A stretch of 64,000 nt of DNA, taken from the NCBI GenBank assembly GCA_039028615.1, contig JBCCHT010000043.1, positions 32,001 to 96,000 of the forward strand, written 5' to 3'. Source of the DNA: Myxococcota bacterium. Its GTDB lineage: Bacteria > Myxococcota_A > Polyangia > Nannocystales > Nannocystaceae. Shown in pieces: positions 21-12,290 of this stretch (the stretch's first letter is position 1; every line of letters starts with the position of its first letter). The notes beneath the pieces were generated by a model. The model worked only from the letters and a program-made list of their open reading frames with translations. It had not been told where the DNA came from and ran no database searches. Made by a program: the position numbers and the translations under genes.

Positions 21-1115
21 ATGGAGCTGTCGACCGCCCACGGGCCCCTGCCCGCCCCTTGCTACATCCCCGACGCGACCCGCGGGTTCGTGCGCTCCGT
101 CGACGCCAGCGACCTCGAGGCGGTGGGCATCCCCGCGTTGATGATCAACGCGTACCACCTCATGACGCGGCCCGGCATTCGGGTAGTGCAACGGCTGGGT
201 GGGCTGCATCGCTTCGCGGGATGGTCGGGGCCGATCGTCACCGACTCGGGCGGCTTTCAGGTGTTCTCGCTGATCCGGCAGAACCCCAAGCACGGACAGA
301 TTCGCGACAACGAGATCGTCTTCCGCCCTCCCGACGGCAAGGACAAGCTCATCCTCACCCCCGAGAAGGTCGTGCAGACCCAGTTCCGGCTGGGCGCCGA
401 CGTGATGGTCGCCCTCGACGACTGCACCGGACCCGAAGCGCCTGCCGACGAGCAGCGCCGGGCCGTCGATCGCACCGTGGCCTGGGCCCGACGCGCGCTC
501 GTGGAGTTCAATCGTCAGCTTGCCCAGCGTCGCAGCAAAGACATTCCCCCGACCCTGGTCGCCCCGATTCAAGGCGGCAACGATCCCGCGCTACGACGAG
601 ACTGCGCCAACGCCCTGCTCGATGCCGGCCTCACCACCTTTGGCTTCGGCGGCTGGCCCCTCGACGAGCACGGTGCGCTGCAGCTCGACATGTTCCAGGT
701 GCTGCACGAGCTGCTGCCCATGACCACGCCTCTGTTCGCGCTGGGCGTGGGCAAGCCCGAGCACCTCACCGCCATCACGGCGCTGGGTCGACCCGCCGTG
801 TTCGACAGCAGCCTGCCCACCCGCGATGCTCGACACCATCGCCTCTACCGCTTCCGCGACGCGCTGCCCGAGGGGCCGCTGACCTCGGGCCGAGACTTCT
901 TCGAACGGCTGTACATCCTCGACAAGAAGCACGCGACCGCCGACGAGCCGATCTCGCCGCATTGCGATGCGTTGTGTTGTCGCCGCTATAGCCGGGGTTA
1001 TCTGCACCACCTGTTCAAGTGCGAAGACCCTCTGGCCAAGCGCCTGGCGACGCTGCACAACCTGCGCTTTTACACGCAGCTGGCGGCCCATCTGCAAGAG
1101 CACGGCGCTCGCTGA
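21..1115 (+). CDS. tgt: tRNA-guanine transglycosylase (queuine tRNA-ribosyltransferase) family protein, divergent
   Basis: Motifs NAYHL..RPG, TDSGGFQVFSL, LDDCT, PIQGG, FDSSLPTR, and a C-terminal Zn region C..CC.RYSRGYLHHL...TLHNL. Confidence 0.9.
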   Translation: MELSTAHGPLPAPCYIPDATRGFVRSVDASDLEAVGIPALMINAYHLMTRPGIRVVQRLGGLHRFAGWSGPIVTDSGGFQVFSLIRQNPKHGQIRDNEIVFRPPDGKDKLILTPEKVVQTQFRLGADVMVALDDCTGPEAPADEQRRAVDRTVAWARRALVEFNRQLAQRRSKDIPPTLVAPIQGGNDPALRRDCANALLDAGLTTFGFGGWPLDEHGALQLDMFQVLHELLPMTTPLFALGVGKPEHLTAITALGRPAVFDSSLPTRDARHHRLYRFRDALPEGPLTSGRDFFERLYILDKKHATADEPISPHCDALCCRRYSRGYLHHLFKCEDPLAKRLATLHNLRFYTQLAAHLQEHGAR

Positions 1116-3962: not shown

Positions 3963-5420
3963 CTAGGGGACTTCGTCGATGCCGGGGTAGCCGGGGGCCT
4001 CCTGCGGGCGGGGATCGCCGTCGACGTCGAAGAGCGGATCGCCCTCGTCCCAGTCGGCGATGTCGGCGAAGACGCTCTGGCCCTCCGCGCTGAGGTGGAA
4101 GTCGCCCGCGGGGGCGTCGACGAACCAATCCGAGTCGAAGATGCCGACGGACTGACCTGCGCCCAGGCCCCCGTCGACGGCGTTGTCGGCGAAGGTGAGC
4201 GAGCACCAGGAGCTGAACGAACCCGGGTAGGCGCCGACGATGATGCTGTTGCGGATCTCTCCGCCCCCGCTGCTGCCGTCACAGCTCACGGTGTTGTGAT
4301 TGCCCGCGATGGTGGAGTGGTACAGCCGCAGCTCACCGCTCTCGATGGAGACGGCGGTGTCGGAGCCAGGGCCGATGCTGCTGTTGGTGGCCTGGAACAT
4401 ACCGTCACCGATGATGCGGATGGCGACGCTCTCCGGCTCGGCGGCGGTGAAGCGGCTACGCCGGGCGTAGGTGTCGCAATCGGTGTCGATCGAGGTGGAG
4501 TAGCCGTTGATGGTGATGTCGTCCATCCACAGCAGGTTTCCGTGGCGACACTGGATGGCGCGGAAGGGGCCGTCGTCGAGGGCGACCTCGGACAGGTAGA
4601 GAATGCGCTGGGTGTCCTCGCTGGTGAGGACGAACAGATTGGTGGCGCCGCCCGTGATGACGGTGCCCGGCTGCCCGATCACCGCGACTTCACCCGCGAC
4701 CTGCAGCGTTCCGTTGATTTCGTAGACCCCCGACGCGAGGCGGATGACCCGCTGCGAGCCGATGCCCAGCTCGCTCAGCGCGGTCTCGAGCTCGTCGGCG
4801 GTGGAGGCATCGACGACGTCGCCGGGGTCGAAGCAGGAGCCCTGCTCGGGGCCCAGCAAGTGGCAGGCGGAGTCGGGACAGTCGGAATGCTCGGTGCACG
4901 CGGCACAGCCGAGACCGGGATCGCAGACCGGAGTGTCGCCCGAGCAGCTGTCGGCCACACAGGCGACACACTGACCTTCGGCACCGCACAGGGGCGCGAG
5001 CGGGTCGTCGTCGGCACACAGCTGGTCGGGCGCGTCGGCGTCGGAGCAAGGACCGCAGGCACCCTCGATGCAGAAGGCTCCGGCGTCGCAGTCGGCGTGG
5101 CCCTCACACTCGGGGGCGGGACCATCGTCGGTGTCGCCGGGCTCGGGGCCATCGGTGTTCCCGTCGGCCCCATCGGCGGAAGGTTGGTCGGTGTCGACCC
5201 CCGGTTCGGGGGTGCCGTCGGTGTCGATGGCGCTCGTGTCGGGGCTGGCGGCCGAGGTGGATCCCTCACCGTCGTCGCTGTCGAGCGGCGACATCTCGGG
5301 GTTGAAGCACGCGGTGGCACCGAGCAAGGCGAGCAACCCGACCGCGGACGACACGGCACCCCGCGAGCGACGAACGGGGAAACAAACAGTGTTATCGGGC
5401 GAACTATTGATGTCGAACAT
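3963..5420 (-). CDS. secreted lipoprotein: acidic linker, Cys-rich repeats, C-terminal parallel beta-helix-like domain
   Basis: Lipobox-like LLGATAC, D/G/P/T-rich linker, Cys-rich block, beta-helix features (STIAGN, GDFHL, D.DG.PR...PGIDE); AGGA ribosome-binding site before ATG 5420. Confidence 0.75.
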   Translation of the reverse strand: MFDINSSPDNTVCFPVRRSRGAVSSAVGLLALLGATACFNPEMSPLDSDDGEGSTSAASPDTSAIDTDGTPEPGVDTDQPSADGADGNTDGPEPGDTDDGPAPECEGHADCDAGAFCIEGACGPCSDADAPDQLCADDDPLAPLCGAEGQCVACVADSCSGDTPVCDPGLGCAACTEHSDCPDSACHLLGPEQGSCFDPGDVVDASTADELETALSELGIGSQRVIRLASGVYEINGTLQVAGEVAVIGQPGTVITGGATNLFVLTSEDTQRILYLSEVALDDGPFRAIQCRHGNLLWMDDITINGYSTSIDTDCDTYARRSRFTAAEPESVAIRIIGDGMFQATNSSIGPGSDTAVSIESGELRLYHSTIAGNHNTVSCDGSSGGGEIRNSIIVGAYPGSFSSWCSLTFADNAVDGGLGAGQSVGIFDSDWFVDAPAGDFHLSAEGQSVFADIADWDEGDPLFDVDGDPRPQEAPGYPGIDEVP

Positions 5421-5443: not shown

Positions 5444-5520
5444 TGGTACCTGGGGAGGGATTCGAACCCCCAACCTCCCGGGTCTGAGCCGGTCGCCTCT
5501 ACCAATTGGGCTACCCAGGC
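5444..5520 (-). tRNA. tRNA-Leu(CAG), 77 nt, short variable loop, CCA encoded
   Basis: Minus strand folds as acceptor GCCTGGG/CCCAGGT, Leu-type 3-bp D stem GCC-CAATTGGTAGA-GGC, anticodon loop CT-CAG-AC, 5-nt variable loop AGGTT, T arm GGGGG-TTCGAAT-CCCTC, discriminator A plus CCA. Confidence 0.85.
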
Positions 5521-5565
5521 ATAGGCGTTCCCATCGGGGAACGTGGACGACTTTTTTTCTGCCAG

Positions 5566-5639
5566 CGCGGCGTCGAGGATTCGAACCTCGGGCCTCCCGA
5601 TTCGTAGTCGGGTGCTCTATCCAGCTGAGCTAACGCCGC
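5566..5639 (-). tRNA. tRNA-Arg(ACG), CCA not encoded
   Basis: Cloverleaf GCGGCGT/ACGCCGC, D arm GCTC-AGCTGGATA-GAGC, anticodon arm CCCGA-CTACGAA-TCGGG, T arm CGAGG-TTCGAAT-CCTCG. Confidence 0.95.
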
Positions 5640-5771
5640 ATGTCGTCACGGCGTGCGCACGCACGAACCGCGACCACGCGTCATCACCCGGCGAGCCTCG
5701 CAGGACCTACGAGACCACCGTTGGCAGAGCAACGTCGTCTTGGTTTTGGACTGACTCGCCCAACTGGCGAG

Positions 5772-5885
5772 TTACGCGACGCGAAGAAGGCGTCGACCAC
5801 CCACGCGCAGGCGCAAGCGCAGCCGACCGCCCAGCGTACGCTGGCTGTCTCGCCGCAAGCTCCGTGCCTGAACCTTCGTGGTCAT
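5772..5885 (-). CDS. putative Arg/Leu-rich leader peptide (37 aa: MTTKVQARSLRRDSQRTLGGRLRLRLRVGGRRLLRVA)
   Basis: Hand-translated ATG 5885 to TAA 5772; 11 Arg and 7 Leu codons; lies between a promoter-like element and the Arg and Leu tRNA genes. Confidence 0.55.
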   Translation of the reverse strand: MTTKVQARSLRRDSQRTLGGRLRLRLRVGGRRLLRVA

Positions 5886-5930
5886 GGTCTGCTTGCTATG
5901 CGGCATGGATCCCATACCGTCAAGAAAAAA
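5886..5930 (-). promoter_or_regulatory. putative sigma70-type promoter for the leader/tRNA operon
   Basis: Minus strand TTTTTTC-TTGACG-17 nt-CATAGCAA, 7-9 nt before ATG 5885; the -10 match is weak. Confidence 0.5.
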
Positions 5931-5952: not shown

Positions 5953-6717
5953 CTAGGACTGCGCCGCTTTGCGGTCGCGCTTGCGGAGCTTCCGTCGCGG
6001 CTTGTCGCGCTCGGTCTCGCTGCCCTCGGTGGGGGCGGGTGGCCCCGCGCCTTCGGGTGCCCCCTCGATCACCAGCACGTACTCACCCCGCAGCTTCGTG
6101 TCGCCCAGCCCCTCGAGCAAACTCGACAAGGTGCCACGCTGGACCTGCTCGAACTTCTTGGTGAGGTCGTTGGCCAGCGCGGCCGGGCGATCGCCATAGA
6201 CCTCGAGCGCGTCGCGAAGCAACGCCTCCACCCGGTAAGGGCTCTCGTAGAAGAGCAAGGTGTGCGGCGAGTACTGGTCGACCTCCAAGAAGCGCTTGCG
6301 CTTGCCCGACTTGCGCGGCGCAAACCCGCGGAAGGTGAACGAGTGTAGCGGCAGGCCGCTGAGCACCAGCGCCATGACGAACGCCGAAGGCCCCGGGATC
6401 ATCGTGACCTCGAGCCCCTCTTCGTGACACAGGCGCACGAGTGAGAAGCCGGGGTCGGCGATGCCGGGCGTGCCCGCGTCGGAGACCAGCGCGACGTCTC
6501 GACCTTCGTGGAGCAGCCGAATGATCTTCCCGCCTACCCGAGACTCGTTGTGCTCGTGGAAGGGCATCTGCCGCGCCTTGATCTCGTGCCGCGTCAGGAG
6601 CTTGGCCGTGTGCCGCGTGTCCTCGCTCGCCACGATGTCGACGCTTCGAAGCACCTCGATCGCGCGGAGCGAGATGTCCTCGAGATGACCGATGGGCGTG
6701 GCGACGACGTAGAGCAT
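5953..6717 (-). CDS. rsmI: 16S rRNA (cytidine(1402)-2'-O)-methyltransferase
   Basis: [56 protein letters not shown]; start moved to ATG 6717. Confidence 0.95.
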
Positions 6718-6976
6718 CGACCTGGCGAGCATTGGCCAGCCGGGCCGCGTTGGCAACTGCTCGGACGAACCGGGTCCCCACTCGCGCTCGGCATCGTGCA
6801 GCACGCAATCTCGCCCCCGGCGAGGCGCTCGCGGGTCGCAAAGCCATGGCAACGACTGTCGCCACGCAAACTTTCTCGACATTTCGAGTGAGAGGACGAG
6901 GGCAGCGTGGGAACTACAAGGTCGGTCGCGAGCAATGAGGCGACCACACAACGACCGTATTCGATCGGACCCCCAA

Positions 6977-8219: not shown

Positions 8220-9035
8220 TCACGGGGGCGCGGTGTCGATGCAGAACACGATCTCGTGGGCGAAGAGCAGCTCGTGAATCGTGAAGCCGCGCCCCTCGGT
8301 GAACCGACCCATCATCGCACGGTAGGGCTCGACGAGACGTCGGCCCCCGTGCGCACTCACGGCCGGCAAGGACACCACCACGTGCCGAGCCGGGATCGCG
8401 GCCAGCCAGTCGCCGTCGATCTGCGTGGGGTAGTTGCGAGCGAGCCGATGCAGCTCCTTGAGCAAGAGGGCTACGTCGGCGCGCTGCGTCGGGGGGTCGA
8501 GCACGATGTCTCGCACCTCGGCGCCGCCGGGCTGGCCTCGTGCCCGCAGGTACCGGTCGAGGAACTGCACGCGCGCCTCGTGGATGTCGTAGGCGAAGTA
8601 CTGCGTGGTCGCGGGCAAGCCCATCCACGGCATCGCCACCGGGCCCAGCGCGCACGCCAAGTCGAGCACGGTGCCCGGCATGCCCGTCTGCTCGAAGATC
8701 GCGGCGTAGAACTCCCGCACGTAGGGCCAGCGCTCGCGGGTGCTCAGGTGCAACCCGAGCGCCTCCTCGCATAGCGCCTGCTCTCGCGCGGCGTCGCCGG
8801 CCTCGAGCGCCTCGACCACGGCGGGGCCCAGCGTCTCGTAGTCGGGATCGCCCAGGTGATCGGCGACGATGCCATGCAGGCGCTTGCGAACCGCCTTGTC
8901 GAGCGCCTTGCGCTTGCGGTGCTGCGGGAAGGCCTGCTCCACTAGCGCCCGCACCGTGGCCTCCGCGACCGTCCGGTACTTTCGCGAGCTTCGGATCGCC
9001 GCCACCACGGCCTCGATCTGTTCGGCGTCGCTCAC
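8220..9035 (-). CDS. 16S rRNA (guanine(1405)-N7)-methyltransferase family protein (ArmA/Rmt/Sgm/FmrO-like)
   Basis: SRKYR N-terminus, RKRLH, HLSTRER, VLDLACALGP, YFAYDI, DVALLLK.L, VVSLP, terminal E-I-V-F; start moved to GTG 9035. Confidence 0.8.
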   Translation of the reverse strand: MSDAEQIEAVVAAIRSSRKYRTVAEATVRALVEQAFPQHRKRKALDKAVRKRLHGIVADHLGDPDYETLGPAVVEALEAGDAAREQALCEEALGLHLSTRERWPYVREFYAAIFEQTGMPGTVLDLACALGPVAMPWMGLPATTQYFAYDIHEARVQFLDRYLRARGQPGGAEVRDIVLDPPTQRADVALLLKELHRLARNYPTQIDGDWLAAIPARHVVVSLPAVSAHGGRRLVEPYRAMMGRFTEGRGFTIHELLFAHEIVFCIDTAPP

Positions 9036-9133
9036 CGCCCGGAGGGTAGCGCGCCACTCCAACGAAAACGACGCCCCCACAGTGCAGGGACGTCGTCTCG
9101 AAGTCAGGGCTGCCGTAGCCCCGGCGGGACCCT

Positions 9134-10559: not shown

Positions 10560-12290
10560 CTACTTGGGGGCGTCCACCAAGCGGAACAGCGGGTTGACGG
10601 TCAGTTCGACCATGAGTGCTTTGTAGTTGTAGTCGGTCTCGGAGAAGCTCTCGTCCAGGGTGGCGATGCCGGCGGCCTGGTCGAGGCCGGGGTCGTGGCC
10701 CAGCGTGCTGCGGTAGAGATTCCGAACGACGCAGTTCGGAACCCGCGGGTCGTTGCGGATGAGCCCGGCGAGGTCGGCCGCGCCGCCGAAGCTACCCACG
10801 CCGCCCACCTCACCCGAGGAGTCGATGGGAAGCCCGTTGTCGAGCTGTCGGAAGGCACCGATCGCACTGTAGCGCTCGAACGCGAAGCCGATGGGATCCA
10901 TGAGCGCATGGCAGGCCGCACAGCTGTCGTCCTGGTTGTGCTCGTTCTCCAGCCACTCGCGCAGGGTCTGGCCCTCCATCGGTGCCGGCGGCATGACCTC
11001 CACATCGGGCGGCGGCGGCAGGATGTCGGTGCACAGCAGCGTCTCCTGCACGAAGAGCCCGCGTCGCGTGGGCGAGTTGATGTCGGGGTGAGAGAAGACG
11101 CTGAGGAACGCGGGGTGCGTCAGGAAGCCCGCGCGCTGCTGGCCTTCGGGGAAGGACACGAGCTGCCACGGGAACTCGGGTGGATCCATCCCGTACAGCT
11201 GAGCGAGGTCGTCGTTCACGAACGTGTAGTTCGCGTCGAAGATGCCCAGGAAGTTGCTCTCCTCTTCGAAGACCACGTTCTGGATGAGCAAGAGCGTCTC
11301 TTGCCGCATCGCCGCCGCGAGGTCGGGGTTGAAGGTGGGGAACAGCTCGGCGTCCTTGCCCTTGTTCTCCAGCTCGCGGAGCTTGTAAAGCTCGTCGTAG
11401 AACTCGGCGAGACGGGTGCGGGCTTCCGGCCGCGTGAGCATGTCTTCGGCGACCGCCCGAATTTGGCCGTCCTCCGACAGCTGCCCCGACTCGGCCGTGT
11501 CCAGCGTCCCCCCGTCGGGCGTATGACCCAGCAGGAAGAACGACAGGCGCGACGCCATCTCGTAGTCGGTGAGAACGCGGTGCTCTCCGTCTTCGGTCTC
11601 CTCGCCAACCTCCACCACATACAGGAAGTTGGGCGACTGGAAGATGGTGCCCACGAGGTACTTGATACCGGTGAGGAAGTCGTTGCCTCCCCATTCGTAG
11701 GCGGCGTTGGCGATCTCGACGACGTCGGCGATCTCCTCGTCGGTCAGCGGTCGACGCCACGCCATGCGCCCCAGCTCGGCGGCGACCGTGTCGTAGCAGG
11801 AGGGGTCCTGACCATCTGCCACGCAAGGCACGAGGGCGTTGAGCGAGGCCGGCTCGTTCATCACCGCGGTACCCATCGCCAGCGCCGAACTCTCGTACAG
11901 CTCGATGTCGATGGGCGTCAGCGGCTCCTCGTTGACGGTCTGCGAGTCGAAAGTGCCCAGCTCGGGCAGCGGAGGCGGGTTGGCGGCTTCGGCAACCTCG
12001 GCTCCGAGGATGACCTCTACGCTCGCGACGTACTGATCGGGTGTCAGGCGACGAATGCCGCCCGGTGGCGGGAGCACATTCGCGTCGCCCCCCGTGTTGG
12101 TACCGTCGGTTCCGGTCTCGTCTGCCGTGCCATCGACACCGTCGGTCCCCCCCGCGGTGCCGGTCCCGCTTTCGGTGCCACCTGCTCCTCCCCCGCCGTC
12201 ATCACCACAACCAGTGGCAGGTACGGCTAGCGCGAGGAGACATAACGGCAGAGTCAGTATGTGACTGGAACGGAGCGGAAGCGTTTTCAT
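10560..12290 (-). CDS. DUF1592/DUF1588/DUF1595/DUF1585 lipoprotein
   Basis: RRLT..QY, AWRRPL, FQSPNFLY, YEMASRLSFFL, SPTRRG, SCAACH..MDPIGFAFE; start moved to ATG 12290. Confidence 0.88.
   Translation of the reverse strand: MKTLPLRSSHILTLPLCLLALAVPATGCGDDGGGGAGGTESGTGTAGGTDGVDGTADETGTDGTNTGGDANVLPPPGGIRRLTPDQYVASVEVILGAEVAEAANPPPLPELGTFDSQTVNEEPLTPIDIELYESSALAMGTAVMNEPASLNALVPCVADGQDPSCYDTVAAELGRMAWRRPLTDEEIADVVEIANAAYEWGGNDFLTGIKYLVGTIFQSPNFLYVVEVGEETEDGEHRVLTDYEMASRLSFFLLGHTPDGGTLDTAESGQLSEDGQIRAVAEDMLTRPEARTRLAEFYDELYKLRELENKGKDAELFPTFNPDLAAAMRQETLLLIQNVVFEEESNFLGIFDANYTFVNDDLAQLYGMDPPEFPWQLVSFPEGQQRAGFLTHPAFLSVFSHPDINSPTRRGLFVQETLLCTDILPPPPDVEVMPPAPMEGQTLREWLENEHNQDDSCAACHALMDPIGFAFERYSAIGAFRQLDNGLPIDSSGEVGGVGSFGGAADLAGLIRNDPRVPNCVVRNLYRSTLGHDPGLDQAAGIATLDESFSETDYNYKALMVELTVNPLFRLVDAPK

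Follow-up and report, generated by a model that had tools for sequence, protein, structure and literature searches.

The closest described relatives of the locus analysed here are the leader-peptide transcription attenuators (trpL, hisL, pheL and pheM-pheST) a class that has Rho-dependent counterparts of the tnaC/mgtL type. For tRNA genes in bacteria, control in bulk is the usual view, through growth rate or stress regulators; T-boxes may occur upstream of clostridial tRNA genes, for which a literature look-up gave no confirmation. Several published systems nevertheless share features with our locus. His leaders precede hisS (PMC2965389); the cyanobacterial L-array, or trn operon, is a silent spare tRNA set that is induced by translational stress under direct-repeat promoter control (PMC8421152); the mycobacterial polycysteine attenuators, leaderless sORFs described as a "ribulon", exert ribosome-pausing control at several loci (10.1101/834739); and in the WblC/WhiB7 regulon translation stress induces six tRNA genes together with alternative elongation factors, wblC itself being uORF-attenuated (PMC7157823).

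In the window, by which we mean the whole stretch of 64,000 nucleotides analysed, the minus strand carries a nearly leaderless ORF of 37 codons (P0001, 5772..5885), and 132 nt separate its stop codon from the first of two tRNA genes, a tRNA-Arg. Re-translation and measurement bore out what a first-pass annotation, made from the letters alone, had listed here, namely the ORF on the minus strand (5885-5772), its 11 Arg and 7 Leu codons among the 37, and a tRNA pair about 130 nt beyond it. As in leader-peptide attenuators, a short ORF rich in cognate codons stands ahead of the genes that it would control. Unlike in those systems, the genes that would be controlled encode the tRNAs by which the sensed codons are read, the leaders are multivalent and between them partition a whole tRNA set, and the window locus has no U-tract terminator and lies in a genome in which no rho was found. 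With the L-array (PMC8421152) it shares the spare tRNA set, and an HNH gene adjoins several leader-bearing arrays (L327 and L338), but instead of one long cluster we find many small modules, each with a codon-matched leader: two tRNAs at the window locus, and the spare set divided among 8 loci that lie on 6 contigs. Among the flanking genes of the 36 ORFs scanned, no shared stress module was seen beyond two HNH genes and one ThiF. The polycysteine sORFs (10.1101/834739) resemble our leaders in being leaderless-type sensor ORFs at multiple loci that need no terminator, yet they sense one amino acid, and what they regulate is the start of translation of a protein gene downstream, a mode of control not open to tRNA genes. 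The tRNA genes of the WblC regulon (PMC7157823), in turn, are switched by a transcription factor rather than by codon-matched leaders of their own. No publication on leader-ORF control of tRNA genes was found by full-text search of a literature that takes in few subscription journals, in keeping with the earlier remark that no such case had been described. This would be a leader-attenuator-like device with tRNA genes as a new target class, and we put at roughly four in five the probability that, as sequence comparison suggests, a ribosome that stalls on the cognate codons turns on tRNAs that are spare and variant.

The ORF follows a promoter-like element, TTGACG-17-CATAGC (5895..5923, minus strand), in which TTGACG occupies 5923-5918 and, after a 17-nt spacer, CATAGC occupies 5900-5895, with the ATG (5885) 9 nt further on. 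Although a strict sigma-70 scan of the window locus called no promoter site, the layout is as the annotation had it, with the ORF within 7-9 nt of the element, and it is kept in 6/6 aligned homologues. A 9-nt ATG-N3-CAT palindrome (5899-5907) overlaps the -10 side and is present in 9/10 homologous leaders; it is possibly an operator or a sigma-specific element. A longer inverted repeat in the promoter spacer was rejected as a part of the device, its exact copy being confined to the window locus and not conserved. The genome to which the window belongs (G000), probably that of a myxobacterium, measures 12.3 Mb, has 68% GC and is 96.7% complete, and the caution that Arg codons are common by chance is a fair one, since the Arg level of the leader alone is matched by 2.7% of its ATG ORFs of 25-50 codons. 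The composition as a whole is far rarer: among 49,445 such ORFs only 69 (0.14%) consist of Arg and Leu to at least 50%, and only two match both levels. P0001 matched no NCBIfam family, and neither a T-box nor any other cis-regulatory Rfam family was detected on the leader at E <= 5.

The candidate sensor segment comprises codons 21-35 (5781..5825, minus strand), with Arg or Leu at 12 of the 15 positions. The match between leader and tRNAs holds for amino acids, not for anticodons. Only 11 of the 18 Arg and Leu codons can be read by the two local tRNAs, so that the match proposed in the annotation stands for the amino acids and not for all of the codons; the other seven (CGG, UUG and CUU) match tRNAs of the six-gene version of the operon in a related genome, G002. 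More generally, codon enrichment in leaders does not follow the downstream anticodons any better than genome codon usage would predict (228/317 against 231.7 expected). Within 40 leaders, U-ending codons make up 50/81 among cognate and 36/122 among non-cognate codons (p 6e-6), a bias that would fit selection for slow, wobble-read codons.

The Arg-Leu pair is one of 8 extra tRNA clusters on 6 contigs of G000, the others being Pro2, Ser4-Tyr, Cys-Gln, Thr-Phe-Asn-Lys2, Asp-His, Met-Phe and a 7-gene cluster; together they span 18 amino acids, and a promoter-like element with a short ORF precedes every one of them. Housekeeping clusters typically have their promoter 40-80 nt upstream, too close for a leader. 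When all 47 tRNA clusters of the genome were compared blind by their best-scoring upstream ORF, a score of at least 4 was reached by 5/8 auxiliary and 0/39 other clusters, and p <= 0.05 by 6/8 and 2/39, respectively. With leaders picked by hand, the true pairing of leaders and operons ranks first of 40,320 in G000, where the own operon is the best fit for 7/8 leaders; it also ranks first in G002 (of 362,880), G005 (of 720), G016 (of 24) and G023 (of 24), again with hand-picked leaders, in tests that cover selected clusters of related genomes, which are not independent samples. Leaders of the His/Asp, Cys/Gln, Met/Phe, Ser/Tyr, Glu and Gly/Ala operons each match their own operon. In G000 the Pro leader is not enriched in Pro (Z 0.2) and that of the 7-tRNA operon is weak (Z 1.5).

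The Arg/Leu operon is present in 7 of 73 genomes of the family, with further copies in metagenome contigs. The conservation in relatives that had been proposed as a check is there: start and open frame are kept in 7 orthologues, and all indels within the ORF are in-frame. Changes show no excess at the third codon position (20/28/28 and 18/24/22), which argues that composition, rather than the peptide, is conserved. Six orthologues whose operons include Arg tRNAs have 7-11 Arg codons in the leader, whereas L335, with four Leu tRNAs and no Arg tRNA, has 3 and lacks the Arg run in the sensor segment. The operon itself varies from 2 tRNAs in G000 to 6 in G002, a genome whose nine modules cover all 20 amino acids and in which a paralogue of the window scaffold places a Pro-rich leader before four Pro tRNAs. 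A further paralogous promoter, leader and hairpin precede a second, divergent EF-Tu (G000:C40:88088-89763, L256), which is 53% identical to the main copy of the genome and whose leader uses 18 amino acids; the same EF-Tu module occurs at G004:C11 (L031). When the leader-family motif was run over 401 genomes of the phylum, four of them family members, only G000 and three loci without a nearby tRNA were recovered. At L215 and L266 (G472-type), other sequence replaces the promoter and the first third of the Arg/Leu leader, and this type of module is probably a damaged copy.

RNAalifold and covariation identify a 7-bp hairpin with an AGUU(C)G loop (5754..5772, minus strand), which starts on the final base of the stop and is our candidate switch element. 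All 7 pairs are kept in 8/8 sequences, 4 of them with compensatory change, and 0/500 shuffles reach its covariation score, in a control that ignores relatedness. Of the structures listed in the first-pass annotation, this hairpin overlapping the stop is real and conserved, while the sequence of the one at about 5712-5740 is not conserved among aligned homologues, nor are the GGCGAG/CTCGCC repeats that were to provide alternative pairings; the spacer 3' of the stop-codon hairpin diverges freely. RNAalifold also predicts a long-range helix (5799..5883, minus strand) between codons 1-3 (5883-5877) and codons 27-29 (5805-5799), enclosing inner hairpins, with 89% of cells paired and 2/7 pairs changed on both sides. 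The fold of the whole leader at the window locus is unremarkable (z -1.49), and freeing the 3' arm of the hairpin produced no alternative fold consistent across 10 homologues; the hairpin is ribosome-sensitive by its position, and no conserved alternative fold was found for it at the window locus. The paralogues before EF-Tu and Pro tRNAs have an ORF that extends through the hairpin, so that a finishing ribosome would disrupt it in every case. A second leader family (14 loci) has a long hairpin of -34 to -50 kcal/mol that starts in the last codons and is lost with a ribosome at the stop codon; this family, too, lacks a U-tract.

U-tailed hairpins end most housekeeping tRNA genes of G000. Downstream of the stop-codon hairpin, on the other hand, there are at most 4 T per 8 nt over the next 120 nt in 10/10 homologues, and no intrinsic terminator lies between leader and tRNAs at the window locus, where a strict terminator scan had no hit, or at its 9 homologues, which confirms the caveat already raised. 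The remedy suggested at the time, Rho-dependent control, fails because no rho was found: G000, at 96.7% completeness, gave no match with TIGR00767, PF07497 or tblastn, and neither did any of 4/4 further family members (G002, G005, G014 and G453) above cut-off. A Myxococcus genome (G485) does have rho, unlike these five family genomes (90-97% complete). With neither U-tract nor rho, no known switch is recognised at the window locus. The locus has the codon-enriched ORF of a classical attenuator and its conservation of frame rather than peptide, but not its intrinsic terminator, and since it fails the terminator and the Rho test alike we do not class it as a member.

The terminator does appear in other lineages. 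A scan of metagenomes for the short-arm tRNA-Leu(CAG) found 77 loci, two of them Myxococcus-like, and of the 64 whose upstream DNA was long enough, 16 conformed to a fixed rule (short ORF followed by a U-tailed hairpin); some of the 48 that failed show leaders by eye. The genome-wide scan for short-arm Leu tRNAs gave, among the matches listed (at least 119), mostly actinobacterial housekeeping Leu tRNAs without leaders, and the 80 of those listed that had full flanks served as control loci, of which 1/79, an Actinokineospora tRNA array, obeyed the rule. No instance of the short-arm Leu(CAG) pattern turned up in 151 genomes of a planctomycete's phylum. Sixteen terminator leaders picked by hand have their stop 23-40 nt ahead of the terminator arm, and in most of these the arm is predicted to be paired upstream until a ribosome nears the last codons or the stop; taken one by one, three of these 16 antiterminator duplexes did better than shuffles (Fisher p 6e-4, over loci that are not independent). 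The terminator motif alone, run over 91 Myxococcaceae genomes, gave 24 hits in 13 genomes. Nineteen precede tRNAs, with the leader ending 37-44 nt before the hairpin in 19/19, and the other five resemble ordinary gene-end terminators. Across 17 short operons, which are related loci, leader content tracks the tRNAs so closely that 0/100,000 permutations were as good. All 20 amino acids occur in the leader of a 16-tRNA array, one scaffold switches from Gly/Leu/Pro to Asp/Arg within a single genome (L361 and L357), and Myxococcus sp. Y35 has two leader and terminator operons (L337 and L338); several arrays are without a leader. As judged from sequence, a matched leader followed by an intrinsic terminator is the classical attenuator layout, down to a terminator 23-44 nt past the stop whose 5' arm is able to pair with the end of the ORF. 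The Myxococcaceae leaders (L337, L338 and L339-L362) have a TGTCA-N-CGTC promoter-like motif, which we take to be ECF-sigma-like, and a strong ribosome-binding site, as against the TTGAC type of the window. Long tRNA arrays after a mixed-codon leader and a U-tailed hairpin were also seen at L128 (Actinokineospora soli) and L281.

Translation of the leader, stalling, the direction of the switch and its trigger are what we infer from the ORF, its matching composition, the change of that composition with tRNA content, the hairpin and the terminators elsewhere, as these emerge from sequence comparison. The promoter would transcribe the nearly leaderless mini-gene and then the two spare tRNA genes. 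Under normal decoding of Arg and Leu, the ribosome would reach the stop codon and melt the hairpin, and the tRNAs would not be made or not be kept; should working tRNA for Arg or Leu run low, the ribosome would stall in codons 21-35, letting the hairpin form and the spare tRNAs be produced. The second tRNA set would be split into 8 such modules, plus the EF-Tu module with its mixed-codon leader. The proposal of the annotation that a translated leader senses cognate codons and controls auxiliary tRNAs is thereby strongly supported in its core, given the eight operons, the content that tracks the tRNAs and the terminator layout elsewhere, whereas Rho, the alternative pairings and the anticodon match have dropped out of it. 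As for the effector at the window locus, the chances are about even that the hairpin makes the polymerase terminate or pause although no U-tract follows; that the precursor is instead protected or processed is a possibility that we regard as somewhat doubtful.

One may also consider that the leader is a general sensor of translation stress or of antibiotics, its match to the tRNAs being incidental or historical. Arg-Leu-Arg arrest motifs occur in macrolide-inducible leaders, and P0001 contains several such triplets; moreover, the same scaffold with a mixed leader precedes EF-Tu, the match at the anticodon level is absent, and translational stress of a general kind is what the spare tRNAs of cyanobacteria respond to (PMC8421152). 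Against this, the leaders of the His/Asp and five other operons listed above match their own operons although they have no Arg-Leu-Arg runs, L335 lost its Arg run together with the Arg tRNAs, and the Myxococcaceae scaffold at L361 and L357 changes its content within one genome, so that we regard a general sensor as improbable.

The tRNA genes themselves bear on what a stalling leader would respond to. Housekeeping genes for Arg(ACG) and Leu(CAG) exist elsewhere in G000, and the window pair duplicates their anticodons, as expected of the auxiliary copies that the annotation had taken them for. The spare tRNA-Arg(ACG) (5565..5639, minus strand) has A37 where the housekeeping copy has G37; the spare tRNA-Leu(CAG) (5444..5520, minus strand) has A37 in place of G37 as well, and a variable arm of 5 nt instead of 14 nt. 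Its A73, A15:U48 and D-loop look Leu-like by the identity rules. Throughout G000 the anticodon loop differs between spare and housekeeping tRNAs in 17 of the 23 shared anticodons, and G37 is replaced by A37 in the spare Arg, Leu, His and Gln tRNAs, but not in Pro. At the 3' ends of the auxiliary operons (on C1, C9, C23, C27 and C43) there are in several cases strong hairpins that lack a U-tract; no strong hairpin ends the Arg-Leu pair, after which an ORF follows closely at 5420. Altered as they are in loops and arms, the spare tRNAs point to a trigger that consists in damaged or unmodified tRNA rather than in a shortage of amino acids, and loss of working tRNA (by cleavage, lost modification or blocked charging) is the likelier one because extra tRNA would not cure such a shortage. 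Tentatively, and with some doubt, one could go further and see in the modules a reserve translation kit of damage-resistant tRNAs for all 20 amino acids and a second EF-Tu, switched by ribosomes one codon family at a time upon cleavage of tRNAs or lack of their modification, through an undescribed hairpin switch that needs neither Rho nor a U-tract.

Classical sensing of amino-acid starvation, in which the extra tRNAs or the transcript serve recovery, would draw on the same codon logic as amino-acid attenuators (PMC2965389) and would suit a match at the amino-acid level only; since starvation would trigger the same switch, this alternative concerns purpose and not wiring. It appears very unlikely, as extra tRNA would supply no amino acid, and the short arm, the change from G37 to A37 and the altered loops fit evasion of damage better than dosage. 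That the window device is a decayed relic of a terminator-based attenuator, or a chance ORF in GC-rich DNA, with tRNAs expressed regardless, would agree with its patchy presence (7/73 family genomes), with two tRNAs where G002 has six, with the loss of promoter and 5' part in G472 and with the lack of terminator and Rho, but is scarcely credible when only 2/49,445 ORFs match as well and frame, start and hairpin are conserved, the last with compensatory changes, while the spacer diverges.

Stalling on cognate codons, if it does control these tRNAs, would mean that a leader reading the codons its tRNAs decode gives direct feedback on the supply of single tRNA families, and it would suggest, in a form that can be tested, what the numerous redundant and odd-looking tRNA genes of genomes are for. 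It would also predict a defence against tRNA-cutting toxins or loss of modification, and offer ready-made codon-specific stress sensors; the terminator version is present in named, culturable Myxococcus strains, while the window version would show a leader gating transcription or RNA fate with neither Rho nor a U-tract.

The upstream neighbour of the leader differs among orthologous loci. In the window it is an RsmI-family 16S methyltransferase (5953-6816, minus strand), and two other neighbours likewise act on translation, a Tgt-like tRNA-guanine transglycosylase (21-1115, plus strand) and a distant, Rmt-like 16S G1405 methyltransferase (8220-9050, minus strand) that scores below the family cut-off. 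The ARAGORN call of a tRNA-Ala(AGC) at 10671-10756 of the window is probably false, as it falls within a coding region and lacks an Rfam tRNA match. The housekeeping reader of CUU and CUC is a tRNA-Leu(AAG), not GAG, in 5/5 family genomes (G000:C9:93585-93671). Together with tRNA-Arg(ACG), this would make Arg and Leu the two families dependent on A34 editing; G34 versions (Leu GAG and Arg GCG) are supplied by the Arg/Leu modules of relatives. Finally, the 7-gene auxiliary cluster is flanked by two tRNA-like genes (G000:C27:171191-171263 and 172144-172216) whose anticodons are those of Ser, whose variable arms are short and whose stems are irregular.
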